DNA of 64,000 nt, taken from positions 96,001-160,000 of the IMG/VR virus record IMGVR_UViG_3300013121_000022. One strand, written 5' to 3'. Of this stretch, positions 28,748-60,134 are shown one piece after another; within the stretch, counting starts at the first letter, position 1; each line of letters starts with the position of its first letter. This DNA comes from a virus. Its lineage: Duplodnaviria; Caudoviricetes. The position numbers and the translations under genes are program-made. The notes below the pieces were generated by a model, which had not been told where the DNA came from, searched no databases, and worked only from the letters and a program-made list of their open reading frames with translations.

Positions 28748-29196
28748 TGTTCATGAATGAAACTGGTATTTCCATAGGATTTGATACGGTAATTCCACCA
28801 AACGATTTTTGCGTTTTTGTTGTACCCATATTTGATATCAAGTAGTCATTCGTTTTCACCGAGCAAACCGCCTGAACTTAGATGCTGTAGAGTTGCTAAC
28901 ACAGACCTGAGTGTTGTAGTTGAATCAATTAATTTCCGCTCACGTAACGAAAATTTTTTTGGAGCTGTTTTTGCTCTGTATGCTCTAACCGCAGGATCGT
29001 TATCCAAAATTATTACATTGGAAAAACCTCAAGTCTGCTTCTCTGTTCTATCACAATCTAATTCAGGTCGTTCAAATCACCGATTGGCGGTTGAGGCATT
29101 ATACTGCGACAAACCCATTGTGTTTGCATATGTAGATCGACATCGAAAGACATTCCTTGACTTAGTTGCTGAACTAGGGTAATATCAACGTGATCG

Positions 29197-29570
29197 GCGC
29201 AGATCAAGTTGTCGAGCTCGAAAGAGTTAGGAACTTCCCGACGATACAGGAGCAATCCTGAAAACCCTCCACATGAAAACAGCAAGTGTGGACAGTTCGA
29301 CTGAACTGATGTCAACGGCAACAGAGAACATTCCGCTCGAAAGAGTAACGGGTGAAAAGGACGGTGATACCCGTCCGGCATGTCAAGGTAACTTGCTTGC
29401 ATAGGCGACAGGACAGGGGATCGCAAGGTGGCGCAAGATAGGCTACGGTTTATCTTGTAGAACCGCAGTATAAACGGTACGACAGAATAACACTCAGTCG
29501 CACTAGGATATACCATCAACCCGATGAGAAAGATGACAACCTAAACAGAATCGGGGGTATGATCGGCGCA
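29197..29570 (+). ncRNA. rnpB: RNase P RNA (phage-encoded)
   Basis: AGGAACTTCCCGAC pairs with AAACAGAATCGGGGGTAT (P4, bulged U); GCAACAGAGAAC..CCGC; GGGTGAAAAGG; GCAAGG; P2 GTTGTC/GACAAC; GAAA-capped P3. Confidence 0.88.
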
Positions 29571-29649
29571 GATTGGTTCTTGACAAAAAAATATAACCGA
29601 TCCATAATAATCTCAACTTCCACTATCTCACAGAAAGAGGATACCGAAC

Positions 29650-29826
29650 ATGGAACTCAAAATTGTTTCTGCAAAAGCTGGTGATCAGTACGTGAATCTG
29701 GTGGGTCAAACATTTCCGGTGGTTCGTGAACTGGAAACAATCTACGTGATTGAAGTTGAGGGCAAAAGCGTCTATGTTCGTGAGGACGACTGCGAAGTAA
29801 AAATCATTGAACCAGTTGCGGCCTAA
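29650..29826 (+). CDS. 58-aa hypothetical protein (not in ORF track)
   Basis: TTGACA promoter at 29580, AAGAGGA RBS; MELKIVSAK...EPVAA. Confidence 0.7.
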   Translation: MELKIVSAKAGDQYVNLVGQTFPVVRELETIYVIEVEGKSVYVREDDCEVKIIEPVAA

Positions 29827-29886
29827 ATAATTATTCTACTTGACAGGCTTTATCAAGTCAGGTAGAATAATTTGCGTGAGGGTCAT

Positions 29887-30120
29887 ATGAAATATACCGA
29901 TAAGTTTGAAGTGGACACTAACGGTAAAATCATTGGTGCTGAAACGCATCCGAATGCGCCCGTAATTGTAAATTTTTATCGTGTTGTCAACGGCAAGAAG
30001 CGATACAATAAACTTGCGAAGCGGTTACATTTTTTTACCGAACAACACTTTCAGAGCAACACCGATTTCTTGAATCGAATGAGCGCACGTAAAGATCGGG
30101 TATATTATCGGGCAAACTAA
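29887..30120 (+). CDS. hypothetical protein
   Basis: promoter TTGACA at 29840; GAGG RBS. Confidence 0.55.
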   Translation: MKYTDKFEVDTNGKIIGAETHPNAPVIVNFYRVVNGKKRYNKLAKRLHFFTEQHFQSNTDFLNRMSARKDRVYYRAN

Positions 30121-30127
30121 ATAACAA

Positions 30128-30198
30128 GCGGGTATAGTATAACGGTATTATAAAAGCCTTCCAAGTTTAAGACGCGGGTTCGACTCCCGCTATCCGCT
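30128..30198 (+). tRNA. tRNA-Gly(UCC)
   Basis: loop CTTCCAA. Confidence 0.9.
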
Positions 30199-30339
30199 CA
30201 GAGAATAGCACGAGTGACTAACGTTGCGAAATGGTTGAATACAGAGTCCTGACGTTGATCTATACTGCTTAGGCACACATGGATCATGAGGTCAAAAAAC
30301 TAATCCTCAACACATCCGGCATTATGCTAATTTTGCCAT

Positions 30340-30695: not shown

Positions 30696-30775
30696 CAGGT
30701 TCGTTTCATTGTGTCTCATTTAGGAATGAGACAAAGCCTCTTGACAAAGAGGCTTTTTTGATCTATATTTGTCTC

Positions 30776-30982
30776 ATGACATCTAAAACCGATAAGCCAA
30801 AGAAAATTGAAGCAGGACGCTATTTGTATCGTGGTGTAATTATTCGTCGCAATCCATCAGTCGCGTCGGGTTGGTATGGATCGTGGTTATTCAACGACAG
30901 CGGAGCAGATAGTTTGAATGATGCCTGCCAACAAATCGATTCTCGAATTGAGGCCAGAAAAAATGAAACTATCAATCGCTAA
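30776..30982 (+). CDS. hypothetical protein (leaderless)
   Basis: TTGACA(30741)-17-TATATT, ATG 7 nt later. Confidence 0.65.
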   Translation: MTSKTDKPKKIEAGRYLYRGVIIRRNPSVASGWYGSWLFNDSGADSLNDACQQIDSRIEARKNETINR

Positions 30983-31757: not shown

Positions 31758-32651
31758 ATGGGATACGCACACATCGAAAATCTTTACAAGCCACATGTAA
31801 AAGAACTTCTCTTTATGTTTCGGGAAGTCTATGCACTCGAAAAGATACATGGATGCTCCGCCGAAATTAAGTTTACCGCCGAGATTGGAACTGGCAAAGT
31901 TGATGTTAGTTTTGACGGTGGGCTATTGTCGCCAGAACAATTCTCAAACATTATCGACAAGTCTATTGTAGAAAAGTTCGTGGAACTGAACAAGCAATAC
32001 AACAACGAAAGCATGTCTGTGTTTGGTGAGCTCTACGGTGGATCGATCAACCATATGAGCAAGGTGTATGGAGAGGAAAAACGCTTTGTTGTTTTTGATG
32101 TCAAGGTTGGCGATGTTTTCTTGTCTGTGCCACAGGCCGAAGACACAGCGAATCGACTTGGACTGGAATTCGTATCTTACAAGCGCATTCCGGTAACGAT
32201 TGAAGCCATTGATGCTGAACGGGACGCCGAATCGGTTCAGGCTATCCGCGTCGGAATGGGTTCTGGCAAATATCGCGAAGGTGTGGTTTTGCGTCCGTTG
32301 TTTGAAGCACGACTGAATAACGGCGAGCGAATTGTAGCCAAACACAAGCGTCCAGAACATTCTGAAACAAAGACTCCGCGAACTCTGAATGAGGATGAAC
32401 TGAAAGTCCTGTCCGATGCCAATGAAGTTGCAGAGGAATGGGTTACGGAAACCAGACTCCAGCATGTCTTGGACAAGATTACCGGAACACGAGATATGAA
32501 GTTGATGGGAACGGTAATAAAGGCCATGACTGAGGATGTGTACCGAGAGGCGCATGGCGAAATCGTGGAATCCAAAGCTATTCAAGGCGCAATCAGCAAG
32601 AAAACGGTTGCGCTTTACAAGAACTACCTTGAAACCGACAGCGTTCAATAA
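31758..32651 (+). CDS. RNA ligase, Rnl2-like
   Basis: motif I EKIHG, FGELYG, FVVFDV, EGVVLRP, AKHK. Confidence 0.85.
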   Translation: MGYAHIENLYKPHVKELLFMFREVYALEKIHGCSAEIKFTAEIGTGKVDVSFDGGLLSPEQFSNIIDKSIVEKFVELNKQYNNESMSVFGELYGGSINHMSKVYGEEKRFVVFDVKVGDVFLSVPQAEDTANRLGLEFVSYKRIPVTIEAIDAERDAESVQAIRVGMGSGKYREGVVLRPLFEARLNNGERIVAKHKRPEHSETKTPRTLNEDELKVLSDANEVAEEWVTETRLQHVLDKITGTRDMKLMGTVIKAMTEDVYREAHGEIVESKAIQGAISKKTVALYKNYLETDSVQ

Positions 32652-32888
32652 CAAAATTGAAGCACTGCTAGTCGATTTACATCGATGGGGAGTGCTTCAA
32701 TGTATTATCCGACAAGATCAAATGTTTTGCACTCCACCTGTAGCCGGACGTCCATCAATTGTTGATATGTTTGAAGTTGAATGGAGCGTTCATTCAGTCA
32801 AAGACGTTCCAGAGATCGTCTTGTACGTGACGGACACTACAGCCTACACGCGATTGCACAAATGGAATCAGAAAGAAAGCTTACTGAC

Positions 32889-33614
32889 ATGGACAATCTA
32901 AAAGAGATTGGGCAAACATGGATTGTTGAATTTCCAAGAACAAAACATCTTCCATTTCGCCCTAACGCCACTCGTGATGACCTAATTGCTACCCAAGTTC
33001 AGGCAAGCATTATTTTTGATCCGGCAGTTGTCGTATCAACAACTGAAAAAGTAGACGGGGCACAATTGGGAGTTGGAATTGTTGATGGTAATCTTTGTAT
33101 CCGCAACCGAAATCACGTGCTCAATAAAGGTTATCTCAGTCGCGGGGCGGCAGGCCGACAATTTGCGCCAACATGGACGTATTTTTACAAGCGAATTGAA
33201 GCACTAAAGGCAATGGAAAAGTTCGCAGGTGAGCCTTTGGTAATTTACGGAGAGTGGTTGTATGCGGTTCATTCAATTGTTTATGACACTTTAACTGTTC
33301 CGTTTTTGAGTTATGATATTTATTTGCCGGAACAAAAGATATTTATTAAAGGTGCTCTGGCTAGATCGCTACTAGAAAACTTTGGATGGTCAGTTGTTGA
33401 ACAACTTGAAAACAAGGGATCGTATGAAGAATTGTCGAAGTTGTGTCACCAAAAATCGGCCTATGGATCGACTAAGCGAGAGGGTGTTTATCTGTCGGTC
33501 TGCGCCGATAAAAAATCAGTCACACATCGATTCAAAATGGTACGTTCAGATTTCATTACTGGTGAACACTGGTCTAAGCGATCTATTATCAAGCAACCTA
33601 TGGTGAGGTTTTAA
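32889..33614 (+). CDS. RNA ligase-family nucleotidyltransferase
   Basis: FPRTKHL, EKVDG, YGEWL..HSI.Y, EGVY, KMVR. Confidence 0.85.
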   Translation: MDNLKEIGQTWIVEFPRTKHLPFRPNATRDDLIATQVQASIIFDPAVVVSTTEKVDGAQLGVGIVDGNLCIRNRNHVLNKGYLSRGAAGRQFAPTWTYFYKRIEALKAMEKFAGEPLVIYGEWLYAVHSIVYDTLTVPFLSYDIYLPEQKIFIKGALARSLLENFGWSVVEQLENKGSYEELSKLCHQKSAYGSTKREGVYLSVCADKKSVTHRFKMVRSDFITGEHWSKRSIIKQPMVRF

Positions 33615-34195: not shown

Positions 34196-34290
34196 GGTTT
34201 GGTAGCCAGACAAATATAACAAGTTGGCCGCACTCAATTTTTTAAGTTTTACCTATTGACATTTAGTTCATAAGCGTCTATACTGTCTTC

Positions 34291-34463
34291 TGTAAGTGAG
34301 AGAGAGATTGAGAGAGACGGGCGCAAGTCCGGCGAGTACGCAAGTTCTGATATACCACTCAGCCAGCCAGATAGAACGGTGGAGCGAACAATGGAGTGGC
34401 AACCCGATAAGCAGGGTTGGCAAGCGCACTGATAGTAGGAACGCTGTCAGGCTCAATCTTACA
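34291..34463 (+). ncRNA. candidate structured ncRNA (~170 nt)
   Basis: own promoter TTGACA(34256)-17-TATACT; ends pair TGTAAG/CTTACA and GATTGAG/CTCAATC; GCAA-capped hairpins. Confidence 0.65.
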
Positions 34464-34492
34464 AAAAACACAACCGAAAGGATAACGCGGCA

Positions 34493-34684
34493 ATGTCAAA
34501 ACTCAATTTGGGCGACACGGTGTATGTAAAGGGTTTTCGGAATCAAGGGACAACGACCATTGCTCGGTTTATGATCAATAAAAAGGGCGGAGTTGTATTG
34601 AACAATCCGATTAACGGTTTGTGGTGCTGGAATGTGAAGGATTTGGTTAAGATCAAATTACCAAAGGTGTTTAATGGAAATTAG
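34493..34684 (+). CDS. hypothetical protein
   Basis: AAGGA RBS. Confidence 0.55.
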   Translation: MSKLNLGDTVYVKGFRNQGTTTIARFMINKKGGVVLNNPINGLWCWNVKDLVKIKLPKVFNGN

Positions 34685-34859
34685 CGTGGGATTGAAAGTC
34701 ACATGGAATGACAACGGATTAACCCGATGGGATTATTTTGAACTTGTCATTCGCAACGGGCAGGAATTAGTTTTGTCGGGTTTTGGAAAAACCGTTCACA
34801 TCAAGGTTGAGGACTTGAAATATATCGAACCATTTGGAAAGTTACCAGAAAACGGTTGA
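34674..34859 (+). CDS. hypothetical protein
   Basis: AAGGTG RBS, overlap. Confidence 0.5.
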   Translation: MEISVGLKVTWNDNGLTRWDYFELVIRNGQELVLSGFGKTVHIKVEDLKYIEPFGKLPENG

Positions 34860-35073
34860 TGCCATTTGTATACTCTGTGATGTAGAAATCCAGCATACCG
34901 CGTTCGCGGAGGCATAAGAATGGGTGCAACCTGTGGTCTTGTCTGAGTAGGCAAAGGTCATGAACTTTGTTTGAATGGCATCATCCGTTTTCTGATAAAT
35001 TCGGTGGTACGATAACGCAAGTAATCTTGAAATTGATCCTTGACAGGATAGCAAAAGCGACTATAATTTTTTT

Positions 35074-36078
35074 CTGTTGGCCTGAACTTTACAAAAATTA
35101 CTGAGGGCGCTAATGGAGTTCAACTCTCCATCAGTAACATATCCAAATTGGAGTGGGGTAGTGCATACCCAAATCAAGGGAGGAAGCAAGCGAAAGCAAG
35201 CTGAAACCTGAGATTGAAACTCTAAGGCGGAGGGAACATCTAGTTCCCTTAGATAAAACCCGTAAGGGTAATAAAGGCGGATACCAATGGTCTGCCGGAT
35301 GCAAATCTCAACTAGACGAACTATCTTCGCTTGTGTTGGTGTAGGTGGTCGGCAAGAAATTGCAGGCTACTGAACAGCTAAGCCCACTGAAAAGGTGGTG
35401 AGTCCGAAAGACAAAACAATAAGATAGAGGGTAACAAGTTCGTTCGCAAGACGGGCGCTTACAAGACAATCGGCATCACTCCTAGCGGAACTTGCCAGAA
35501 AGTTAAGCGGTTACTGACAGCAAATCAGTGGCGGCAAAATGTGTGGTGTGGTAAAGGGATGCGTAAAAGTGTCTACAACCCGACAGGATACATCACGCAC
35601 AATTGGAAAAACTCTGCCTGAAGCTCAGGCTTGGCCTCTTAAGCAAATGCAATCGCAAAAATAAAGTCCTGTAGGTGTACGAGATTTACAGATACCCCTT
35701 CATTACCGTAACCAATCGGTGAATCAAGGCCACGAGCTTTGATATGTGCAACGAGTGAAGGATGTTCGGCGGCTTGCAACCGTTGGGCATCAGGCGCGGC
35801 GAGTGCATAGAAGATTTCGTAAACCTGAGTGGGTTGGGCTAAACCCACAAAAAGAAACTAAGCGACATCGTAAGCACAACGATACGCAAGGATAGCGGGG
35901 TAAAGTGTAGGATGATTGGGGTAACTCGATCTTGGAACAGAGCGGACACTGTGACGAACAGAACTGCTTGACTCTACACTAAAAAACGGAATGTGGCCTG
36001 AACCGTTTCTTGAAACGACTACCCTCTGGACTATATAGTCGAATGGACATATAATTCAGAGAGTGGTCATTTTTGTTT
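35074..36078 (+). ncRNA. large (~1 kb) structured ncRNA, possibly GOLLD-like
   Basis: no ORF of 60 aa or more on +; promoter TTGACA(35040)/TATAAT(35062); about 20 helices with GNRA loops; terminator-like hairpin at 36017-36078. Confidence 0.8.
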
Positions 36079-36101
36079 AACCGAAAGATGGAAAATTTTA
36101 C

Positions 36102-36698
36102 ATGAAGATGAATGCTGTTATGGTCGGAGATGTACACGGCAAGTGGGATCAATTCAAGTCGATTGCTGAAAAGGCAACGATGCCTGTGTTTCAGGTCGGT
36201 GACTTTGGATTTGGACTACGGAATCGTAAGCCCAACATCAAAGGCGATTGGCGTTTCATTCGCGGCAATCATGACGATCCAAGTTTAGCTAAAAAGGACA
36301 GTCATTATGCTGGCGACTTTGGCGTTTGGAACGGAGTGTTCTTTGTTTCGGGCGCAGCTTCAATTGATGTTGGTCAGCGTACTACTGGTGTTGACTGGTG
36401 GCCGGATGAACAATTGAATTACACGCAAATGCAAGAGGCATACAATCTGTATGTAAGATTTAAGCCAAAAATTGTTATCACTCATGATTGTCCAGATCAT
36501 TTCAAGTCGCATTTTATGACCTATGTCATCAAGCGATCCTCGACCGGAGTTTTATTGAATGCACTATATGAATTTCATGAGCCAGAGTTGTGGGTTTTTG
36601 GTCATCACCACAAAAGTCAGCAAACTCGATTCGGAAAAACAATGTTTGTTGGCCTTAGAGAACTTGAAACCCAAGAAATTGAATGGACGATTCCATAA
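36102..36698 (+). CDS. metallophosphoesterase
   Basis: GDVHG, VGDFG, RGNHD, THDCP, FGHHH. Confidence 0.92.
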   Translation: MKMNAVMVGDVHGKWDQFKSIAEKATMPVFQVGDFGFGLRNRKPNIKGDWRFIRGNHDDPSLAKKDSHYAGDFGVWNGVFFVSGAASIDVGQRTTGVDWWPDEQLNYTQMQEAYNLYVRFKPKIVITHDCPDHFKSHFMTYVIKRSSTGVLLNALYEFHEPELWVFGHHHKSQQTRFGKTMFVGLRELETQEIEWTIP

Positions 36699-38003: not shown

Positions 38004-38222
38004 ATGGTAAATTTTCTTTTGGGCGTTGTTATGGTTTCAATCATTAACGTAATAGCAAGCATTATTTACACTGTGGCCTATACATCTGTCGAATCGAAAT
38101 ACGATTTTTTTGTTGCTTTGAGTGTCCGCGTTGCGCTATCTGTCTTCTGGCCTATCACCGTATTCTTTTGGGTTTTAGCGGACATCATTCGGTTCTGGCA
38201 GAAGCGTTACATTGAAAATTAG
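38004..38222 (+). CDS. small membrane protein
   Basis: two TM helices. Confidence 0.6.
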   Translation: MVNFLLGVVMVSIINVIASIIYTVAYTSVESKYDFFVALSVRVALSVFWPITVFFWVLADIIRFWQKRYIEN

Positions 38223-38877: not shown

Positions 38878-39174
38878 ATGAAAGCATTGTTACTCAAGGC
38901 TGATAGATCGGAGCGGATGGTTGAACCAATCAACGGGAGATTTGACTTGAATCAAATCTACTCTCTGATTGGGTGTGAAGTTTTTCAACCCATTCAACTC
39001 AATGACAACCGGAAAGTTTTATTGGTCGATGAAGACGGAAAACTAAAAAAACTACCAATCAATCAAAGGGCAACAAAGCTTTTTCATCAAGCAGGCGGAG
39101 CGGAATTTGATTTTGTAGTTGGTGATGTGTTGGTTGTTGTTAACAGCGGAAGTCAGTACGTTGGGTATTTGTAG
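38878..39174 (+). CDS. DUF3846-like protein
   Basis: VDEDGKLKKLPINQRAT..VVGDV. Confidence 0.75.
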   Translation: MKALLLKADRSERMVEPINGRFDLNQIYSLIGCEVFQPIQLNDNRKVLLVDEDGKLKKLPINQRATKLFHQAGGAEFDFVVGDVLVVVNSGSQYVGYL

Positions 39175-39179
39175 TTTTT

Positions 39180-39252
39180 GGGCAGGCATGTTCTAAGGGA
39201 GCGAGGAATACTTGCAATATTCCTGTTGTGGGTTCGATTCCCATTCTGTCCA
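39180..39252 (+). tRNA. tRNA-Ala(UGC), atypical D-arm
   Basis: G3:U70; GAATA-CTTGCAA-TATTC. Confidence 0.8.
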
Positions 39253-39254
39253 CT

Positions 39255-39590
39255 ATGATGCAACGTAAAGATAGTGATTGCATCATTATTAATAATATCT
39301 GTGTCCTATCTGTCTGGTCTGGTTTGGTCAGAGAAAAACATCGGAACACTAGGCGAAGATTTTCGAGCAGATTTCATAAATTGGTTTATGCGCGATGGGC
39401 TTGTCAGTCCAATGACAATCGCGTTGAAGGGTGCGCCTCTGTAACCGCACTCCCATAACATGAGGCAAAGCTTGTAAGAGACAAGTGGAAGTAGGGTTTT
39501 CAAGTCTGCTATCTAATAACCACACTCCGTCACTAGGGAAGCGTGAGCCGAAACGATGTGGCGCAGAGGAAAAACTTGCAGACATGCACA
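39255..39590 (+). ncRNA. candidate structured ncRNA
   Basis: ATGATGCAA/TTGCATCAT hairpin; TGTCTG/CAGACA long-range pair; several hairpins. Confidence 0.5.
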
Positions 39591-39591
39591 T

Positions 39592-39942
39592 TTCAAATTC
39601 TATATTCTGTTGTTCAGGGCGAGTGATTGACTGATCATCAACATTCGTTATAATCATCGCGTAAAAACTGTTGCCATAACAGTAGCGCACTAGACTATAC
39701 ACTTTCGCTGGTCTAGGTTGAACAATACCAATGACATAGAGCATCACAAGTGGGAGATACGAGCGAATGCTTTGAAGCAGTAATGCTTCTTAACCCACGT
39801 GAGTCGTCCCGAATCTTACAGCTAGTGGTCGGTGGCGTGAAGGAAAAATCCTTTCACAGAAATGTGTCGCTTAATAATTTAGTTGGTATGTCTTATCGGC
39901 TTTGCAACCGATTGATTTGAACAACAGAACATAGAATTTGAA
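39592..39942 (+). ncRNA. candidate ncRNA closed by a 25-bp inverted repeat
   Basis: 39592-39616 is complementary to 39918-39942 with one mismatch. Confidence 0.6.
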
Positions 39943-39948
39943 GTTTTT

Positions 39949-40021
39949 GGGCGATTAGCTTAGTTGGGAGAGCATTTCGTTCGCAACGAAAAGGTCGCGG
40001 GTTCAACTCCCGTATCGTCCA
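39949..40021 (+). tRNA. tRNA-Ala(CGC)
   Basis: TTTCG-TTCGCAA-CGAAA. Confidence 0.92.
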
Positions 40022-40036
40022 CAGAAAGAAAACAAT

Positions 40037-40357
40037 ATGACACCAGATATGGCGGCACAGAAGTGGCAATCCGTTCTCAAAAAACAAGATCAACAGCGTC
40101 AGCAAATTGAAGGGATGCTCACTATTGAGTTTGACCAAAAAGTTTTTCGCGCTGATACAGTCAAACCAAAACCACGTGCATGTGTTGCATCAGTACACGT
40201 ACAAACCATTTTCAATTTATGGTCATCCGCGTCTCAAGACAATCTTATTATGACCATCGATGAAATTTTGGAAGTTGTTTCAAATCACTATCAGAGTTTG
40301 GGATGGCTAACCGAAGTATCAGAAGAACGAGTTAGAATTTTATATCCAGAACAATAA
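40037..40357 (+). CDS. hypothetical protein
   Basis: ORF fills the gap between tRNAs. Confidence 0.55.
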   Translation: MTPDMAAQKWQSVLKKQDQQRQQIEGMLTIEFDQKVFRADTVKPKPRACVASVHVQTIFNLWSSASQDNLIMTIDEILEVVSNHYQSLGWLTEVSEERVRILYPEQ

Positions 40358-40358
40358 T

Positions 40359-40430
40359 CAGGGTGTACGTCAGCGGCAGACTACTACGTTTGGATCGTAG
40401 GGGACACTGGTTCGAGTCCAGTCATCCTGA
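40359..40430 (+). tRNA. tRNA-Pro(UGG)
   Basis: CTACG-TTTGGAT-CGTAG. Confidence 0.85.
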
Positions 40431-40441
40431 CAAAAAAAAGA

Positions 40442-40696
40442 ATGACACATTTTCTCAATCGCCAGTTTCAGTATATTCATCACTCAGATCATTTTTGTGA
40501 TCTCCGGCCAAATTGTACGCATCGAGACTTTTGGATGGCAGGCGATAAATTCGAGTGGGTGTTGAAGCAAAATCATCTGAATGGGCAACTCGATGTTTTG
40601 TATAATTCAAAAAGCGATCTTGAAACACTAAAATGGTGTCCCAATTGCGGGGGTAATATCGAATCAGTTATTCAATTTGTGATACAATTTTGTTAA
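40442..40696 (+). CDS. hypothetical protein with CPNCG motif
   Basis: ORF between tRNAs. Confidence 0.5.
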   Translation: MTHFLNRQFQYIHHSDHFCDLRPNCTHRDFWMAGDKFEWVLKQNHLNGQLDVLYNSKSDLETLKWCPNCGGNIESVIQFVIQFC

Positions 40697-40697
40697 T

Positions 40698-40771
40698 CGG
40701 GATGTAGCGCAGTTCGGTAGCGCACTTGCATGGGGTGCAAGGGGTCGCTGGTTCAAATCCAGTCATTCCGA
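40698..40771 (+). tRNA. tRNA-Pro(GGG)
   Basis: CTTGC-ATGGGGT-GCAAG. Confidence 0.92.
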
Positions 40772-40775
40772 CTAT

Positions 40776-40848
40776 ACAGGTGTACCTCAGCGGTTAGAGC
40801 GCCTTTCTTACAAAAAGGAAGTCGGGGGTTCGAGTCCCTCCACCTGTA
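40776..40848 (+). tRNA. tRNA-Val(UAC)
   Basis: CCTTT-CTTACAA-AAAGG. Confidence 0.9.
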
Positions 40849-40850
40849 CT

Positions 40851-40880
40851 AAAGCAACTCACGACTGAGTTGCTTTTTTA
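40851..40880 (+). terminator. intrinsic terminator
   Basis: AAAGCAACTCA-cgac-TGAGTTGCTTTTTT. Confidence 0.85.
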
Positions 40881-41023
40881 TTACAGGCACAAGTGTCTAC
40901 AACGAGACAGCGCCGGAAAAACTGTAAACCAAGCACAGCACAAGACCAGCAATAAATAGATACCGCACACAACAACGGGCACAATCCAACTCAAAAATTT
41001 TTTCTTCATAGGTGGATTTTAAC

Positions 41024-41326
41024 ATGGATTACACTGAAATGAAATCACAGATCGATACCTTGATGCACGAGAAAGAAAAAATAGATTCGCAGATTTCGTC
41101 CATTAAACGACAGTACATTCAAGAACACTGTCCCTATAAAGTTGGGCAGAAAATTATTCGTGCGGGTTATGAATATGAGATTCGATCTATCTACTTGGAT
41201 TTGACTGAGGAAAATACTTACATTTTAGGATGCATCAGGATTGGCGCAACGGGTCGTAGAGCATTCAGGGAATTGACATTTAGACCAAGTAAGTCTCAGG
41301 TCGAGTTTGACAACTCAAATGTGTAG
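41024..41326 (+). CDS. hypothetical protein
   Basis: GGTGGA RBS; CPYKVGQK motif. Confidence 0.6.
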   Translation: MDYTEMKSQIDTLMHEKEKIDSQISSIKRQYIQEHCPYKVGQKIIRAGYEYEIRSIYLDLTEENTYILGCIRIGATGRRAFRELTFRPSKSQVEFDNSNV

Positions 41327-41356
41327 TGTTATTATGTTTGCAATAGAAAGGTTGAT

Positions 41357-41623
41357 ATGTCTAAATTAAAGTCTGCTCTATCATGGGTGTTTTGGTTGCT
41401 TGTTCGGGTTATAGCCTTCCCGTTTCGACTGCTGGTTCAGTTTTCGTGGAAAATTCGGATGGCATGGTCGTACAATAAAGCGAACATCCAAAAATCAATC
41501 AGGGCTTTTTTTGTTGTCTGGATTTTAATACTGGCTTTGATCGTGTGTTTTTTCTTGGCCGGAGCTTTGATTGGCCTGCTGGTTGCAGGGTATCACATTG
41601 CATTGGGGTTGTTCGGGGTATAA
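41357..41623 (+). CDS. membrane protein
   Basis: AAAGG RBS; hydrophobic. Confidence 0.6.
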   Translation: MSKLKSALSWVFWLLVRVIAFPFRLLVQFSWKIRMAWSYNKANIQKSIRAFFVVWILILALIVCFFLAGALIGLLVAGYHIALGLFGV

Positions 41624-41631
41624 TAATTCAT

Positions 41632-41705: not shown

Positions 41706-41711
41706 CACTTT

Positions 41712-42080: not shown

Positions 42081-42092
42081 AAAGACAAACAC

Positions 42093-42475: not shown

Positions 42476-42480
42476 AAATA

Positions 42481-46719: not shown

Positions 46720-47322
46720 ATGAGACGTATCCGACACGGAACTTCAATCAAATTCGCCTTAAATAAATTTTCGCCCATGCAACACAAAGATGAATTCTTA
46801 TGGTTATGGGATCATCTGCCTCCACTTGAAACAGTTTTGGAAATTGGCATGGGTTATGGCGCAACAGCGGCGTTGTTTGCTTTTTCGGGCGCACAGGTTA
46901 CAACGATTGATCCAAAAGTAAAAACCGAATTGTATCAAGAGGTTGATGAAAACGAAGAATACACATTTGACTCACCGGAGTTCAAAAAGTTAGCGTGGTG
47001 GGCAAAGCCAGTTCGCTGGATAAGAAAATCAAGTCTTGACAAAACAGTAATTAGTGATGTAGAATTACCAAGCAATCAGAAATACGATTTACTACACATT
47101 GACGGAGATCATTCGCCAGAGGTATGTAGATCGGATTGGGAAACGTTCTCTCCAATGGCAAAGATAGTTGCCATTCATGATATTTATGGATGGGACAATG
47201 ATATGCACTGGAAGGATGGGCCAAGAGGTTTGTGGAGTGAACTTCGGGAAAGTAAGCAGTATAAAATGCAAGAGTGTTGTTTGCATGAAAGCGGCGGAAT
47301 GGGATTGATATGGATGTCATAA
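46720..47322 (+). CDS. class I SAM methyltransferase (Methyltransf_24-like)
   Basis: LEIGMGYG, DLLHIDGDH, VAIHD. Confidence 0.88.
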   Translation: MRRIRHGTSIKFALNKFSPMQHKDEFLWLWDHLPPLETVLEIGMGYGATAALFAFSGAQVTTIDPKVKTELYQEVDENEEYTFDSPEFKKLAWWAKPVRWIRKSSLDKTVISDVELPSNQKYDLLHIDGDHSPEVCRSDWETFSPMAKIVAIHDIYGWDNDMHWKDGPRGLWSELRESKQYKMQECCLHESGGMGLIWMS

Positions 47323-47573
47323 CTGCGGAATATACGATTAGGCCAGCACGATATGCCAAAAAAATGTTTGCAGTAGAAACCGTTCCAAATGGAACGGGAT
47401 GGAAAACAAAAGCAGATCGGGCGGCAGAGGCCGCACAAGGAAAAACAGTTCGTTACTCACATCGCGAAAAGTCGTACATTTTATCGGCTAGACAAGTCGA
47501 AAAATTCAAAGCTTTGATGTCAAGTAACAACAATATTTTCACTAAAGAATTGCTCGCGAGGACTAACGGCTAG
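47310..47573 (+). CDS. hypothetical protein
   Basis: ORF track; 3' end overlaps tRNA-Asp. Confidence 0.55.
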   Translation: MDVITAEYTIRPARYAKKMFAVETVPNGTGWKTKADRAAEAAQGKTVRYSHREKSYILSARQVEKFKALMSSNNNIFTKELLARTNG

Positions 47574-47626
47574 GTCGTTTCTCTGTCAAAGAAACAGTCA
47601 AGCGGGTTCGACTCCCGTCGTGGGCG
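47552..47626 (+). tRNA. tRNA-Asp(GUC)
   Basis: TTTCT-CTGTCAA-AGAAA, G73. Confidence 0.88.
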
Positions 47627-47632
47627 CACGTT

Positions 47633-47825
47633 GTTGTTAGCATTGAGAGTGTAGCACATTTTTGATTGACGCCGACTTGTTGCGTCGGACGTGCTATCAC
47701 ACGACAATCAAAAGTCCCTCACAAGGGATAAGTTGTCAGGCAACCATTGATAGATGTGACAATGAAAGGGCTACCGGAACTTATCCGGTTTCGATCTTGA
47801 TCGAAACCCTCTCAATGCTAACAAC
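47633..47825 (+). ncRNA. candidate pseudoknotted ncRNA closed by a 17-bp stem
   Basis: GTTGTTAGCATTGAGAG/CTCTCAATGCTAACAAC. Confidence 0.6.
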
Positions 47826-47959
47826 TAATTTACAAGTAGTAGCATATAACATACGATAGCATAAGGCTGACTACTTTGAGGCTGAAGCTTGGTTGCAAAC
47901 AATTAGTAAGCCGGAACAGCTCTGACTACGCGAAGTTGTATGCTGTTGCTTGTAAATTA
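47826..47959 (+). ncRNA. candidate ncRNA closed by a 25-bp stem containing G-U pairs
   Basis: 47826-47850 pairs with 47935-47959. Confidence 0.6.
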
Positions 47960-47963
47960 ATCT

Positions 47964-48035
47964 GCCGCTGTAGGCTAATGGATAAACCGCTAGTCTTCGG
48001 AACTAGCTTTCAGGGTTCGAGTCCCTGTGGCGGCG
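47964..48035 (+). tRNA. tRNA-Arg(UCG)
   Basis: CTAGT-CTTCGGA-ACTAG. Confidence 0.88.
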
Positions 48036-48148
48036 CTGAGTTATCTGGTTGCTTGCACGAGATGGATCGATACGTTGACGTGAGTTATTCTCAATAAAAT
48101 TTATGTATTGGCGTGAAGAACCAAACATAGAAATAACCAGACGTTTAT

Positions 48149-48367
48149 ATGACCGAACTTGTTCGCGAACTAATCAATAAACTGCTAGACGGAAAGCGGA
48201 TTTATCTTCCTAACGGACAAGTAATCGGCATGGGAGAAGATTTTTCAATCGGTTATATGTATATGACTCAGAGTGGCGAATGGTTCGTTGGTGCAATAAC
48301 CATTGACTTGACTGGTCTGGTTCAGGTAATAGAAAAATACAATCTCTCTCTTGATAATGTTCGCTAA
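48149..48367 (+). CDS. hypothetical protein
   Basis: ORF track. Confidence 0.5.
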   Translation: MTELVRELINKLLDGKRIYLPNGQVIGMGEDFSIGYMYMTQSGEWFVGAITIDLTGLVQVIEKYNLSLDNVR

Positions 48368-48369
48368 AT

Positions 48370-48441
48370 GCTCTCGTTCGTTAATGGATAAACGACAAAG
48401 CTTCTAACTTTCCCCTGTGGGTTCGACTCCCGCCGAGAGTA
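48370..48441 (+). tRNA. tRNA-Arg(UCU)
   Basis: loop CTTCTAA. Confidence 0.85.
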
Positions 48442-48655: not shown

Positions 48656-49537
48656 ATGAACACAAAAATGACTCGAACCTACAAACCCTATAAGTCTCTG
48701 GAAAATACATTTGCTGAACATGGACTGAAACTTAAGGTTGTATCTGATCCAATTACTGGACGCGGAAACAAAAATCAGGCGCAGATCGATATTACGGGCA
48801 ATCATTTTCGTTTGTACGCTGGCAAGAATCCTGAAACCAAAATTGCTGTGCAACACGCCGATGGCAAACACATTTTGCTGATGGTGAACGAACCAGAGAC
48901 GACATTCAAAACCGAAGTCACTCACCCAATCAAACGAGACAAGATCATCAAGGTTGTTCCTAAACAATCAAAATGGTCAACTGAAAAATATCTAATTGAA
49001 CGTATTTTACCAGCAGGTGTACGGCACTTTTTGATGGGTCAAGACGAGCGCGGCTTGTTTATTTCAACTGTAGCCAACGTCACGACTGTTCAAAGCGCAT
49101 TGAATTCATTGAAACGCAAGCCAATTGTTGAGGCCGAGAAAAAGGTCAAGGTCGTTCGTCAAGGTGAATGGTTCTTTGTTCCGGCGACCAAAGAGGAAGT
49201 ACACTCGATTGAACTGAGTGGCATAACACATCGCAATCATTCAATTGGTGATGCAACCAAAGTTCGCAGTGGCAAGCCTCATGTTGCACAAGAATTGGTG
49301 GTTGCCGAAATTTATCCGCTTGGACATTTCTTGCCGGAAGTCGAATTGGGTTATAACCTAACACGCTACAACAACGATCCGGTTGTGAACAACATGAACA
49401 CTCCTTATTATTTTGCGGTGTTTGTTCGCGGTAAAGTTGCACATGAAGATCATAAGTCGGTTCAGTTCAGTTGCTGGATGAAGGTCATCAAGAATAACGA
49501 ACGTCCTAATGTTACGGGCGGAAAGTGGTTTGATTAA
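48656..49537 (+). CDS. conserved phage hypothetical protein
   Basis: 293 aa, RQGEWFFVP..H..HEDH motif. Confidence 0.7.
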   Translation: MNTKMTRTYKPYKSLENTFAEHGLKLKVVSDPITGRGNKNQAQIDITGNHFRLYAGKNPETKIAVQHADGKHILLMVNEPETTFKTEVTHPIKRDKIIKVVPKQSKWSTEKYLIERILPAGVRHFLMGQDERGLFISTVANVTTVQSALNSLKRKPIVEAEKKVKVVRQGEWFFVPATKEEVHSIELSGITHRNHSIGDATKVRSGKPHVAQELVVAEIYPLGHFLPEVELGYNLTRYNNDPVVNNMNTPYYFAVFVRGKVAHEDHKSVQFSCWMKVIKNNERPNVTGGKWFD

Positions 49538-50328: not shown

Positions 50329-50358
50329 AAGCACTCATTATCATGGGTGCTTTTTTTA
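50329..50358 (+). terminator. intrinsic terminator
   Basis: AAGCACTCAT-tatc-ATGGGTGCTTTTTTT. Confidence 0.85.
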
Positions 50359-50434
50359 TTGATCGGCGCAGAGCGCGCCTTTAATATTGACACTTGAAAT
50401 CAACTAAGGGACAATTAAGAAAAGGAAAACATTC

Positions 50435-51533: not shown

Positions 51534-51758
51534 ATGCTGATTTACAAATTCCCAAACGATCCAGAGTTCAGTGAGGCATTGAAGAGTCTTGTAAACGGCA
51601 TAGCGGTAAACTTGAAAATCAGCATTCAGGTTCATGTAGCGGATAATAAAGTTGAAATCATAAGTAGTGATGTGGTAGACTTAGATGGTACACGCTATCC
51701 GGCTGAAATGGTTATCAAGCAATCGATTGATATGGTTGTCAAAACACTAAGAAAGTAA
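51534..51758 (+). CDS. hypothetical protein (leaderless)
   Basis: TTGACA(51499)-17-TATTAT, ATG 7 nt later. Confidence 0.6.
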   Translation: MLIYKFPNDPEFSEALKSLVNGIAVNLKISIQVHVADNKVEIISSDVVDLDGTRYPAEMVIKQSIDMVVKTLRK

Positions 51759-51760
51759 AT

Positions 51761-51853
51761 GGAGTAGAGGCGAATACTGGTTTGTCGCGTTTGTTTGCTA
51801 AACAAATCCACGATGTAAATCTGGTGTGGGTTCAATTCCTGCCTACTCCGCCA
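51761..51853 (+). tRNA. tRNA-Ser(GCU)
   Basis: TTTGT-TTGCTAA-ACAAA, class II, encoded CCA. Confidence 0.88.
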
Positions 51854-51857: not shown

Positions 51858-52151
51858 ATGGCTAAAACAATTCGTAATTACGAAGATTTTAAAAAATCGT
51901 CTTTACCAAAAAGCAGAACAAGAAGTTTACAGAGATTTATTGATGGAGTGCGAATCACAGGCGCACTAGGACGAGCATTAATGTCTAACCCATCGACTGT
52001 GCCAGTTGGCCTTAGAAGCAAAGGACGATCATTTGAATCGTTTGGGTTGTTTAATGTTGTTCGAGATTCAAGACCTCCGTTCCATGTACTGTCATGGAGT
52101 CTGACCGAGAAGGGAAAGCAAATCAAGCAACGATTGATGGAACTTGACTAA
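51858..52151 (+). CDS. hypothetical basic protein (possible winged helix)
   Basis: WSLTEKGK motif. Confidence 0.5.
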   Translation: MAKTIRNYEDFKKSSLPKSRTRSLQRFIDGVRITGALGRALMSNPSTVPVGLRSKGRSFESFGLFNVVRDSRPPFHVLSWSLTEKGKQIKQRLMELD

Positions 52152-52154
52152 CAT

Positions 52155-52227
52155 GGTGGCTATTGTGTAGTGGTCTGCACGAAGTGCTGTGAACACTTAG
52201 GTAAGGGTTCGATCCCCTTTAGTCACC
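52155..52227 (+). tRNA. tRNA-His(GUG)
   Basis: G-1/C73; AAGTG-CTGTGAA-CACTT. Confidence 0.9.
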
Positions 52228-54141: not shown

Positions 54142-54167
54142 TCATAACGAAAGAGAGAAAACGACAA

Positions 54168-54836
54168 ATGAATACATCGAGTTATATCAAATATGGAGTC
54201 ATGGCTTTTCTGATCAGTGCCGTGTTACTTGGCCTGATTGCAGTGAACGGTTGGATTGGTGTTCAGAATGCATCCGCTGATTATGAGGCCGAAATTCCGG
54301 CGCAAATGTCGATTTGTGCTACTAAAGTTGACGCTGGTTATCAAACGATTCAGTTACAATATCAGATCAATCAATCACAGGGCGATACCATCAAGGGTTA
54401 TCTGGCGATGATGTTTCAGTCGGCGGTTGATCCCAATGGTCAAGAAACCTTTGCTCAATCTCAGAACAATTTGATTACCGCTGTAATGCAGTATTCTGTT
54501 TTGGGAAATACTGATTTGAATGCGCTTGCCCTGAATGTTCAAGATACCGTTGCGACAGTGTTTTCTGAATTTTCTTCTTGTTTAGGTCGGGCAAATGCAT
54601 TGAAGGCTGAATACAAAAAGGCACTTACGCGTTGGCCGAATAGTATCTTTGCCGATCAACTCAACTTGCCGAATAAGTTCAATGGAGAAGGCGCTAATAT
54701 GCCCAAGCGAGATATTGACGGAGACGGTTATTTGACTGTGTTTGATTATCAAACGACCATTGTCTCTAGCCTCACAGCAGGTACATTTGATACGGGACAA
54801 CTGCCGCAATTGGTGTTACCAACACAAGCTCCGTAA
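54168..54836 (+). CDS. LemA-like membrane protein
   Basis: N-terminal TM, helical body, Y..LTRWPNSIFA motif. Confidence 0.55.
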   Translation: MNTSSYIKYGVMAFLISAVLLGLIAVNGWIGVQNASADYEAEIPAQMSICATKVDAGYQTIQLQYQINQSQGDTIKGYLAMMFQSAVDPNGQETFAQSQNNLITAVMQYSVLGNTDLNALALNVQDTVATVFSEFSSCLGRANALKAEYKKALTRWPNSIFADQLNLPNKFNGEGANMPKRDIDGDGYLTVFDYQTTIVSSLTAGTFDTGQLPQLVLPTQAP

Positions 54837-57290: not shown

Positions 57291-57293
57291 CCG

Positions 57294-57322
57294 AACTCCA
57301 ACCGAAAGGTTGGAGTTTTTTT
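57294..57322 (+). terminator. intrinsic terminator
   Basis: AACTCCAACC-gaaa-GGTTGGAGTTTTTTT. Confidence 0.9.
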
Positions 57323-57360
57323 GTCTTGACATTTTTCTATACTTGAATTATAATGCCCTC

Positions 57361-59358
57361 ATGACATACTATTCTATTTCGGGCATCCTCAAGATGTGGC
57401 GCGATCTCGTTGAAGTGTATTCGCCGGACGACAATCTCAACAACTTTTTTAGTGAGTTGCGGGATTACGACAATCAAATCAGCCTTGCCTTAGAATTAGA
57501 CGATACCAATCTTACGGCAATATTGATTCTGGACAATGTACTTAAGCAGTATCTTGAAAATAAAAGCATCAATCTAAGCGAAATCGCCGGATCGAGAAGT
57601 AATGTTCTGAAATTCTTGGTTGAATATCAGAACTTAAATGACGCTTTACACGCGCCAGAGATTGAATCTTTGGTCAAGGATTTTCAAGATGGTATTGCAA
57701 CATCACTAAATAACGTTCAATGTTTGACACCCTCTGTTGCTGAACTAATCAGCAATCGTTTCATGTTGGCCGAAATACGCTTGGCCGCACTGAAATCAAA
57801 CCGCGATCTCAAGGTATTCAAGTTTTCATCCGGCAACAACGACGCCACTGACTTTGTGTTTTTCAAAGAAGTGCGCCAATACTTTGATGTCAATATTTTG
57901 TTGCAACTCGCCGCAAATCCGCATTTTCCAAATAGCATTAGTCTTCACTTGATTCGAGATGTTGTCAATGAAGAATTCTCGTATTTTGTCTTTTTGATAA
58001 AGAACGGTGACAATGTTTATTTGGTTGCCGACAACCCCGATTTACCTTCACCTGACTACAAGAACAGAGGCCGATCTCGATCTATTTCGCGCAAGTTTAG
58101 TGCTCGAATCGACGCTCATTATTTTCCGTATAGTTTTATGAACGTTGAGTTCAACAAAAAAACAGCTCTGTACGAAATCAAAAATTTTTACTCAACCGAT
58201 CTCGTGCCTGCCGATCAATCGAATATCGTTGGTCGCTTAAATGAAATGGATGCCGAAAGCATTGTGTGGGTGTATATGTTGTTTTGGTTATTTAAGCAAA
58301 AGTTCTTTGCCGATGAACCGATTCAACTTGAGCAATCCTATACAGGTGCGATGATTAGGACTGGAATTGAGTCTCCGAAAGTTTCAAACGCCATTATCAA
58401 GGCGTATCCAGCATTAAATGTTCAATCACTAACAACATCCTTGTTGACTAATTCAAATCCAGAGATTGTCAAACAGTGGAAATATGAACCTACGCATCAA
58501 AATCAATGGATGGAAGATCGCTATGCTGATAAAATCAAAAACACAGATCGGATATTGAATTACGTTGAAGTTCCGGCCTTGCCAGACGACTATAACGTTA
58601 AGACCGGAAACATAATTCAACATCACAAAAAAGATACTGACAGTTTTTTTGGTCAAGATAAACTAGAGGTTGCAATTCCGCTCAGAGGCGTATCTGTTAC
58701 CGATATGGGATCGGCGCAAACTTTGGAGCAAAACAGAATATTTTTTGCCCGTCTTTCTCAAGCTCGATCAATTCAGGTTTTGGCACAACAAGAGTTCAAC
58801 GCAACTCGTAAATCTGTTTTTGCATGGTATTTTTCACAAGTTGTACAAAACATCTCAGAACTTAAACGCGCCATTGCGACTGAAACGTTTATGTGTAATG
58901 TCTCAGTGCATAATTCTTATTCTCCAGATCGTCCTAGCATGGCGGATTCGTTTGACAGTCACATGGAATTGAGAAACATTTTTGTTCTTTTGCCGATTGA
59001 AAAAAGGCGGGGATGGTACGATGACGAGCAGGTGGTGTTGTTAGGTGGCGGAGATAGATTTAGACAATGCTACTTCACTAATGGTCAGGCGTCGTATGTC
59101 GCTAAATTCTATGTACGCGACAGCGATTCAATCGCCAGAGTGTGTAATTTATCGGTATCTGATTTACCTGATGTATTACAACACGTTCGGGGTGTTGATC
59201 GCTATATTGGAAATTCAATACTGTCTCGTATCGATCCATTGGATAATTTGAAAAATCCCTGGAACAAACTTGACTATAGCATTGAAATTGCATTATCCAA
59301 GCGAGCTCTGAATGCCATTCGCAAAGAATACGGGATCAAGAAAGAAAATCAGTCATGA
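57361..59358 (+). CDS. large hypothetical protein (leaderless)
   Basis: TTGACA(57326)-17-TATAAT(57349), ATG 7 nt later; 665 aa. Confidence 0.75.
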   Translation: MTYYSISGILKMWRDLVEVYSPDDNLNNFFSELRDYDNQISLALELDDTNLTAILILDNVLKQYLENKSINLSEIAGSRSNVLKFLVEYQNLNDALHAPEIESLVKDFQDGIATSLNNVQCLTPSVAELISNRFMLAEIRLAALKSNRDLKVFKFSSGNNDATDFVFFKEVRQYFDVNILLQLAANPHFPNSISLHLIRDVVNEEFSYFVFLIKNGDNVYLVADNPDLPSPDYKNRGRSRSISRKFSARIDAHYFPYSFMNVEFNKKTALYEIKNFYSTDLVPADQSNIVGRLNEMDAESIVWVYMLFWLFKQKFFADEPIQLEQSYTGAMIRTGIESPKVSNAIIKAYPALNVQSLTTSLLTNSNPEIVKQWKYEPTHQNQWMEDRYADKIKNTDRILNYVEVPALPDDYNVKTGNIIQHHKKDTDSFFGQDKLEVAIPLRGVSVTDMGSAQTLEQNRIFFARLSQARSIQVLAQQEFNATRKSVFAWYFSQVVQNISELKRAIATETFMCNVSVHNSYSPDRPSMADSFDSHMELRNIFVLLPIEKRRGWYDDEQVVLLGGGDRFRQCYFTNGQASYVAKFYVRDSDSIARVCNLSVSDLPDVLQHVRGVDRYIGNSILSRIDPLDNLKNPWNKLDYSIEIALSKRALNAIRKEYGIKKENQS

Positions 59359-59861
59359 AAATTTTAACTCCACAGGCTCAACAAGATCGCGAAAATTTTA
59401 TCAACGCCGATCTGTCGGCCTGCACATGCAATACAGGACATCCACCATGTTCTTTTTGTACTCACCCTGGAAACCCAATCAATCAGGACTTGAAATATAG
59501 TCCTGATTGCTGGATGGATGTTCATACTACCGACTCTATTCGAGCAGAACTAAACACCGAGACACGATTTTACTTGTTGGCTATAAGAAGCATTTGTCAA
59601 AAGGGATTTGACGCAATCGCAAAGCCATACTTGGACAAGAACGGATTTCATTTTGTGGTTGATGAGGAACATTGGTGTATATACGACTCAAATATGCGCT
59701 TTATGATTATCGATTCGTTTGACGGACGACATGACGGGCGCGATATTGAACATATTGAACTAAGCAACATTGTCCAGTTTTTACAAATCAGCATCGATGG
59801 CAAATACACCATCGGTATGATGTGTGAAAACTATAGTTCCAAAGCCAAATCGAGGTCTTGA
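59355..59861 (+). CDS. hypothetical protein with CTC..PPCSFCTHP motif
   Basis: ATGA overlap. Confidence 0.6.
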   Translation: MKILTPQAQQDRENFINADLSACTCNTGHPPCSFCTHPGNPINQDLKYSPDCWMDVHTTDSIRAELNTETRFYLLAIRSICQKGFDAIAKPYLDKNGFHFVVDEEHWCIYDSNMRFMIIDSFDGRHDGRDIEHIELSNIVQFLQISIDGKYTIGMMCENYSSKAKSRS

Positions 59862-59891
59862 CTAATTTGAATTATGAGATATAATTTATAC

Positions 59892-60035
59892 ACTAATTGC
59901 TTGCGTAGAATAGCAGGGAGTAGGCAACCTTAATTTGTTCAGTAAATAAAATCTGACCTGAACTGGTTGTTGACTAGGAAGCTCAACCCCTGGGTTGGGT
60001 GGAGTCGCAAATGAAATACCTGCCTAGCAGTTAGT
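59892..60035 (+). ncRNA. candidate structured ncRNA (~145 nt)
   Basis: promoter TTGACT/TATAAT upstream; ACTAATTGCT/AGCAGTTAGT and GCAGG/CCTGC closure. Confidence 0.55.
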
Positions 60036-60037
60036 AT

Positions 60038-60134
60038 GGATAGGCGGCAATGGTTGGCGCAAGCAGACCGCTTGGAAAGCGGTTAGTCGTGATAGTGATA
60101 TTGCGGCTTATGGGTTCGATCCCCATCCTATCCT
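60038..60134 (+). tRNA. tRNA-Ser(GGA)
   Basis: ACCGC-TTGGAAA-GCGGT, long variable arm, atypical D-arm. Confidence 0.8.

Follow-up and report, generated by a model that had tools for sequence, protein, structure and literature searches.

What fills the long gaps between the tRNA genes of a large phage, and how much of it is RNA in its own right? The question is raised by a 64,000-nucleotide stretch (the window; record bases 96001-160000) of the tailed-phage record IMGVR_UViG_3300013121_000022, where the spacers of a tRNA array at 29-61 kb had been proposed to hold more than a dozen structured RNA cassettes, each closed by a terminal stem and cut out by tRNA processing (the original prediction). 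Coordinates below are window positions unless marked 'genome'. The genuine RNA elements of this island are few, comprising a probable RNase P RNA, one candidate non-coding RNA (ncRNA) of ~1 kb, two or more tRNA or tRNA-like genes that had not been annotated, and six AU-rich duplexes; there are about eight to ten such features, not more than a dozen cassettes. The six duplexes are the subject of most of what follows.

The phage record, 172,504 bp long with direct repeats at its termini, has a completeness rating of 100%. ARAGORN identifies 46 tRNAs and one tmRNA in the whole genome, with 33 tRNAs on the + strand between 30128 and 60752. The region as a whole has the appearance of an early-type tRNA and RNA-repair island that would be driven by host sigma-70 promoters and transcribed as many short + strand units, in which the tRNAs would be interspersed with leaders, small protein-coding genes and modules that join a terminator to a promoter.

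A genome-wide scan for stems with ungapped complementary arms located 40-500 nt apart yields seven long stems (score of at least 16), six of which fall within 13 kb of the window (34.8-48.0 kb). Six block-shuffled genomes contain no stem at or above this score, with a top score of 15.1 as against 17-27 for the six long stems of the window. The six stems in the array have arms of 20-33 bp enclosing 84-301 nt, and the elements that they close (cassettes A-F) fold with z-scores of -4.2 to -7.8 relative to dinucleotide shuffles. The interiors folded alone give z-scores of +0.15 to -2.2, which are not significant; they fold like shuffled sequence, and what stands out is the long-range inverted repeat.

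All six cassettes are assigned to the + strand. Cassette A (34839-35001) has 28-nt arms (34839-34866 and 34974-35001) that are 89% complementary, with a stem score of 17.6; the 5' arm overlaps the end of the open reading frame (ORF) at 34674-34859, and the fold z-score is -5.1 (interior -0.4). Cassette B (39590-39944) is a duplex of 25-29 bp enclosing ~300 nt and ending 4 nt before tRNA-Ala(CGC), with z-scores of -6.6 on the + strand and -5.4 on the - strand (interior -1.5), and a promoter matching 11 of 12 consensus positions (39627-39654) lies inside it. Cassette C (42593-42813) has a 33-bp duplex with three G-U pairs and one mismatch enclosing 155 nt (z -7.2 on the + strand and -6.1 on the - strand; interior -1.7); it ends 15 nt before tRNA-Ile (42829), and its 3' arm holds the -35 box of the promoter for that tRNA (12/12). 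Cassette D (43572-43744; 22-bp duplex, z -4.2, interior -0.5) is directly preceded by a closed 56-nt domain on the + strand (43516-43571) with a T-arm remnant at 43529, and the two together (43516-43744) occupy most of the spacer between tRNA-Val and a coding sequence. Cassettes E (47633-47825) and F (47826-47959) abut without a linker and tile a whole inter-tRNA spacer, E beginning 5 nt after tRNA-Asp and F ending 4 nt before tRNA-Arg. The 20-bp duplex of E encloses 153 nt (z -7.8 on the + strand and -8.3 on the - strand; interior -2.2), and that of F is 25 bp long with four G-U pairs and no other mismatch (z -4.3 on the + strand and -2.1 on the - strand), the G-U pairs forming on the + strand only. 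A smaller element, a perfect 16-bp hairpin on the + strand (44876-44934; z -4.6), ends 3 nt before tRNA-Asn.

The original prediction named ten stems, of which those at 39592 (25-29 bp), 43572 (22 bp), 47633 (20 bp) and 47826 (25 bp) are real and the other six are at chance level, as described below; two real long stems, those of 34839-35001 and 42593-42813 (33 bp), had not been named. Its statement that the cassettes share architecture and not sequence is borne out, as none is similar to another or to the rest of the genome, and this lack of paralogues argues against a family of repeat elements.

What might such stems do? The explanation that we favor, tentatively and with somewhat less than an even chance of its being right, is that they are RNase III-type processing or stability duplexes within tRNA-mRNA precursors. 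The long-range duplexes would form inside a polycistronic precursor and be cut there by host RNase III; alternatively, after release of the tRNAs by RNase P and a 3' endonuclease, they would stand in the way of exonucleases. The outcome would be that neighbouring units are separated and that leader and trailer ends are defined. RNase III usually requires a duplex of at least 20 bp. The arms here are of 20-33 bp with at most one non-wobble mismatch in B-F, and no terminators were found in a search between the arms. The arms sit flush with tRNA or ORF ends, which supports a role in processing; the RNA-level function and the nuclease responsible are our inference. Also in its favor are the 16 near-consensus promoters, all on the + strand, the expected endonucleolytic 3' release of the tRNAs, the stem-closed spacer of phage L021 and the structured RNAs in other phage tRNA arrays, all described below. 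In symmetric scans there are 12 G-U pairs as read in + strand RNA versus 3 A-C (one-sided binomial ~0.018), and five of the six stems fold more stably on the + strand. This wobble bias favors + strand RNA, as the original prediction had argued from G-U pairs; F has four of them and C has three.

Several observations weigh against a processing or stability role. A, B and D each have one A-C mismatch, which on the - strand would read as G-U, and transcripts initiated at the promoter inside B or at the one overlapping the 3' arm of C would lack one arm of the stem. A search of the phage genome for an RNase III gene found none. A general rule that a helix ends 2-7 nt before each tRNA was tried and rejected, with 5 of 46 showing one compared to a background of 6-7%. 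The phage is a singleton, and relatives close enough for covariation analysis were sought through the RNA ligase, a methyltransferase, RecA and the portal and were not found. Homologues of the RNA ligase (31758-32651) are present at 15 IMG/VR loci with 42-49% identity, the methyltransferase query retrieved nothing from metagenomes, the best RecA match (~60% identity) is to bacterial RecAs, and the portal matches one 12-kb fragment (58%). None of 38 fetched loci has nucleotide similarity to any spacer, and no phage record was found with DNA common to the island apart from one tRNA fragment. Finally, folding of the - strand gives z-scores almost as strong, and the interiors lack structure, so the signal is equally that of a DNA inverted repeat.

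That these are DNA-level inverted repeats with no RNA role is the first alternative, and one that we consider unlikely. They could be neutral template-switch duplications surviving only in non-coding DNA, relics of small terminal-inverted-repeat elements, or sites of recombination or inversion. It is consistent with a DNA-level reading that the significance lies wholly in the repeats and is alike on the two strands, that the arms are AT-rich (~28-40% GC), that some repeats overlap promoters, and that the island holds most of the long non-coding stretches of the genome. The 12 to 3 excess of G-U over A-C and the placement of the arms flush with tRNA ends count against it. Every repeat is also unique, with no repeat family, and inspection of the arm ends shows no target-site duplications; miniature inverted-repeat transposable elements were rejected on these same grounds. 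A search of the complete genome for serine and tyrosine recombinases (PF00239, PF00589) found none, and an inverton was rejected both for this reason and because only B encloses a promoter. A retron-type RNA was likewise rejected, there being no reverse transcriptase in the genome.

A second alternative returns to RNA, with the cassettes as stable, functional small RNAs that are released by tRNA processing and serve either as Y-RNA-like partners of a Ro60 protein or as decoys. In Y RNAs the two ends of the molecule pair into a terminal stem that closes off a variable interior, and this is the layout seen here, in a genome that also encodes a 490-aa protein with a Ro60 fold (genome 65570-67042, - strand; 5570-7042 of locus L043). 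This assignment comes from structure matching, in which the top 13 PDB matches are all Ro60/TROVE proteins, including the Ro60 of a Thermus phage (TM-scores 0.55-0.62); the protein has a TROVE ring and a vWA domain with a DxSGS motif, and is not detected by the Pfam TROVE profile. Homologues with 24-44% identity are found on other phage-like contigs beside ThiF-like genes, and three T-arm motifs and a consensus promoter lie near the gene in this phage. The complete filling of an inter-tRNA spacer by E and F also fits with release of discrete RNAs. Even so, we regard this explanation as quite unlikely. The interiors fold like shuffled sequence, the cassettes have no paralogy and no shared motif, Ro-binding or other, none matches YrlA (RF02553), Y_RNA (RF00019) or any other Rfam family at E<=10, and the Ro60-like gene is ~63-78 kb distant from them. 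An unrelated phage (L021) has a similar cassette, a perfect 18-bp stem closing 243 nt and ending 6 nt before tRNA-Pro, yet its record has no member of the Ro60-like protein family; among five other phages with tRNA arrays, the family gives a single weak match, to the vWA part.

The broader proposal that tRNA punctuation, with the phage's own RNase P RNA taking part, releases stable, stem-closed RNAs of unrelated sequence with functions of their own, whether as Y-like Ro60 partners or as decoys against RNA-targeting defences, we consider decidedly improbable. Release of spacers between two tRNAs by RNase P and a 3' endonuclease is, as a separate matter, supported by the gene layout. The suggestion that the released RNAs are circularised by phage ligases is not sustained, in that the ends of the 47628-47963 spacer do not pair with one another and the ligases belong to a standard tRNA-repair set.

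Chance pairing in AT-rich spacers has a negligible likelihood as an explanation of the six long stems, with their scores of 17-27 and none of 16 or more in six shuffles, and is adequate only for the short stems at 38263, 44268, 45507, 46575, 59897 and 34296. These are of 7-10 bp (38263, 44268, 46575 and 59897), 12 bp (45507), or 19 bp interrupted by four mismatches (34296), with scores of 13 or less. Shuffled genomes contain 7-11 stems scoring at least 13, and the real genome has nine in this band besides the seven long ones; with such similar numbers, the short stems and the interrupted 34296 stem are no more than chance would give. The stem at 38263 derives from one copy of a dispersed motif (GATCGGCGCAGATC).

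This motif, a 14-bp quasi-palindrome, is present at ~38 genome sites, both genic and intergenic, in both orientations and with unrelated flanks; copies in the window are at 1005, 7515, 19009, 20948, 29192, 29561, 38380, 45400, 46558 and 50361. It is probably a DNA-level site of protein binding or methylation.

Some 20 further spacers have fold z-scores from near 0 to -3. When 26 spacer segments were folded on both strands against dinucleotide shuffles the z-scores ranged from +1.4 to -3.6, with most between +1.4 and -2.8 and no strand bias; the 46575 and 59892 spacers, for example, score +0.5 and -1.0. Five segments have z-scores of -3.0 to -3.6 (30697-30917, 43489-43571, 44736-44937, 45505-45806 and 50329-50434), and several of these include terminator-like or simple hairpins. 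The presence of more than a dozen structured cassettes thus fails a test that the original prediction had itself put forward, as most spacers fold no more stably than shuffled controls. Because the interiors are not significant, the 'multi-hairpin domains' are what any sequence of such composition folds into. The segment 34291-34492 (+ strand) is not a significant closed cassette; it is the leader next to the promoter (34256-34284; 11/12) of a unit with two ORFs, 34493-34684 and 34674-34859, and has z-scores of -2.75 on the + strand and -0.8 on the - strand.

Rfam 15 was scanned at E<=10 over 34196-36101 and 39254-48148, and at E<=1 over the rest of 28000-62000. Only tRNAs score above threshold. 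In the E<=10 regions the matches not overlapping tRNAs are at chance level (15-23 bits, E 1.5-10), and in the E<=1 region the RNase P RNA is joined by just one other non-tRNA match, a weak Phe_leader (29.5 bits, E 0.4). The spacers thus have no cmscan match above chance at these depths; the original prediction had not recognised them as known families. The data support the six cassettes, the ~1-kb RNA and a tRNA-like gene as genuine non-coding features absent from Rfam.

Much of the remaining spacer DNA has other uses. Using a home-made hexamer gene model trained on 90 long ORFs of the genome, 37% of the region 28.3-61 kb is non-coding, compared to 12% elsewhere in the genome; the 37% is an upper bound, since the model misses some ORFs that are short or encode membrane proteins, among them 41357-41623 and 38004-38222, which resemble small membrane proteins. 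The spacers had been described as lacking credible ORFs, and several in fact hold genes: 38878-39174 matches phrog_3777 (E 2e-8), 44978-45304 has a homologue in phage L037 and a weak CI-like match, and 47310-47573 and ~54142-54836 are coding by score. A promoter scan (TTGACA-N16-18-TATAAT, with at least 11 of 12 positions matching) finds 16 near-consensus sigma-70 promoters in the island, every one on the + strand, and three of the cassette starts given in the original prediction (34291, 44268 and 59892) are the transcription starts of near-consensus promoters. Within the terminator hairpins at 30733-30769 and 36012-36074 lies either the entire promoter of the unit that follows or its -35 box, such that termination and re-initiation signals overlap at both places.

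Eight or more small ORFs either overlap a tRNA or have a stop codon no further than 7 nt from its 5' end (29887-30128, 39174-39180, 40357-40359, 46183-46187, 48367-48370, 51758-51761, 52151-52156 and 60664-60663), and RNase P cleavage would thus set the 3' ends of these mRNAs. One island gene (48656-49537) codes for a 293-aa protein with zero matches in Pfam, PHROG, NCBIfam and PDB sequence searches; it has homologues in 23 IMG/VR loci, 10 of them with tRNA genes within 10 kb, and may mark phage tRNA arrays or act in them.

The best candidate for a large ncRNA in the island is an ORF-free transcription unit of ~1 kb at 35074-36078 (+ strand). It follows a promoter matching all 12 consensus positions (35040-35067), its longest ORF in any frame is no more than 69 aa, and it ends in a terminator-like hairpin and U-tract (36012-36074; z -6). 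The fold z-scores by thirds are -2.4, -1.8 and -4.9, and it has no match at E<=10 to any Rfam family, GOLLD and ROOL included.

Two tRNA or tRNA-like genes had escaped annotation. The proposed cassette at 59892 proves to be a transcription start followed by a tRNA-Ser(GGA) gene (60043-60133, + strand), which lies downstream of a promoter at 59858-59885 and raises the serine isoacceptors to four. It is missed by default ARAGORN and by Rfam, and is reported by ARAGORN at 85% thresholds. The T arm and acceptor stem were found by eye, and the fold hairpins fit the anticodon, long variable and T arms; the acceptor pairing is absent from the minimum free energy (MFE) structure, which was computed for a stretch truncated at its 5' end. 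The second, found by a T-arm scan, is a tRNA-like gene at 42400-42476 (+ strand) with its own promoter (42363-42392). Its MFE structure is a cloverleaf with a 7-bp acceptor stem, a canonical T arm and an odd anticodon region, and it is missed by ARAGORN and by the Rfam tRNA model at E<=10. With the sequence GCCUAAA, its 'anticodon' loop of 7 nt might be read as CUA (amber). The upstream gene 41817-42080 stops with TAG and is followed by an in-frame ORF at 42093-42359. Recoding of TAG by this gene was considered and rejected, as the genome as a whole gives no sign of it: TAG ends 24 of 207 genes and the read-through extensions are neighbouring genes.

The RNase P RNA attributed to the phage by the original prediction is recovered at 29196-29574 (+ strand), which on its sequence is probably a divergent, full-length bacterial type A RNase P RNA. 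The cmscan match to RF00010 covers model positions 1-367 with 58.9 bits, below the gathering score of 100, at E 1e-15 to 2e-17. The conserved regions are aligned (AGGAA..UCC, ACAGAGAACA, GGGUGAAAAGG, AGAAAGAUG and AACAGAAUCGGGG), and the fold z-scores are -4.2 on the + strand and -1.8 on the - strand. A weak promoter (29157-29185) lies upstream, and two GATCGGCGCAGATC copies (29192 and 29561) flank the RNA and form its P1 ends. A search with the 14-mer of its unusual P4 strand returned chance matches only, with no neighbouring RNase P motifs, and no RnpA was found in the phage genome.

The two RNA ligases also noted in the original prediction are confirmed by PF09414 matches on the + strand at 31758-32651 (E 7e-14; Rnl2-like, with TIGR02307 at E 9e-14, under its cut-off) and 32781-33614 (E 2e-16). 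Adjoining them is a calcineurin-like phosphoesterase (36102-36698, + strand; PF00149, E 5e-8), a candidate for RNA end-healing, and a CCA-adding enzyme and a Tpt1-like domain are encoded elsewhere in the genome. The tRNA genes do not encode CCA and the phage has a CCA-adding enzyme, and therefore endonucleolytic 3' release is expected. The set of ligases, phosphoesterase and CCA enzyme is the usual tRNA-repair kit. Heavy phage investment in RNA metabolism is supported by the RNase P RNA, ligases, CCA enzyme, Ro60-fold protein and tmRNA, and the label of an 'RNA factory' is a fair one for the gene content. Further RNA- or nucleotide-modifying functions lie outside the window at genome 12674-14701 and 33262-35829 (L040 and L041). 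They are a protein with a RelA/SpoT domain and a large protein, neighbour to an ART-PolyVal protein, in which a Tpt1/KptA 2'-phosphotransferase domain is found.

Comparator tRNA arrays from large phages were reached via homologues of two island proteins. One (L009:19177-19530) contains a canonical RNase P RNA (224 bits) between tRNA-Leu and tRNA-Arg, and another (L023:5399-5869) contains a GOLLD RNA inside the array (165 bits, above threshold); structured RNAs in phage tRNA arrays are thus of a known kind. The other large gaps in the L009 array were considered as RNAs and prove to be ORFs. With the L021 stem described above, stem-closed spacers recur sporadically in phage tRNA arrays. No paper was found on a phage-encoded RNase P RNA or on stem-closed tRNA-array spacers, which is weak evidence given the incomplete coverage of the literature.

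Phage tRNA-array gaps are usually annotated just as spacers, and here they resolve into promoters, small genes, tRNAs that had been overlooked and a few RNA elements. The phage joins a near-complete tRNA set to its own RNase P RNA, CCA enzyme, ligases, Ro60-like protein and tmRNA, and few phages would depend so little on the host to supply and repair their tRNAs. A concrete handle on how long arrays are cut is offered by the six duplexes that lie flush with tRNA ends, and if these prove to be stable RNAs they would constitute a new class of phage small RNAs. There is also a lesson for annotation, in that multi-hairpin folds of AT-rich spacers are no evidence of structure, and only the long-range stems survive the controls.

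Several known systems share elements of this organization. The tRNA cluster of phage T4 produces stable 'species 1 and 2' RNAs (rnaC and rnaD) from a precursor processed by RNase III and RNase P. The array described here is similar in that tRNAs would lie in long precursors together with small ORFs and non-tRNA RNAs and be released by host endonucleases; it differs in its far larger size (34 tRNAs in ~30 kb), in having many internal sigma-70 promoters and long-range stems enclosing 84-301 nt, and in that the phage encodes its own RNase P RNA and CCA-adding enzyme. The stalks of rRNA operons and sites in T7 early RNA are RNase III substrates, and like them the six stems are duplexes of at least 20 bp formed from flanking sequence at the boundaries of polycistronic units; unlike them, the enclosed segments have no recognisable function or conservation, and cleavage is predicted. 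Punctuation by tRNAs releases neighbouring RNAs in mitochondrial transcripts, in MALAT1-mascRNA and in the tRNA-miRNA units of murine gammaherpesvirus 68, with tRNA-processing enzymes setting the ends of the flanking RNAs as they would here; the products of those systems are proven, whereas here release is predicted from gene layout only. The likeness to Ro60 (Rsr) and its Y RNAs (YrlA, RF02553) lies in a terminal stem made from the RNA ends and a Ro60-fold protein in the same phage, and the differences in the lack of a Y model match, the lack of a shared Ro-binding helix and elements that are not adjacent to the Ro60-like gene. GOLLD (RF02032) and ROOL are large RNAs of phages and prophages that are typically found beside tRNAs (PMC5737381, PMC12286853). 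The island has no match to them at E<=10, and the six cassettes are much smaller with interiors that are not detectably structured, but it shares with them a large ORF-free RNA situated within a phage tRNA array, the nearest analogue being the unit at 35074-36078.

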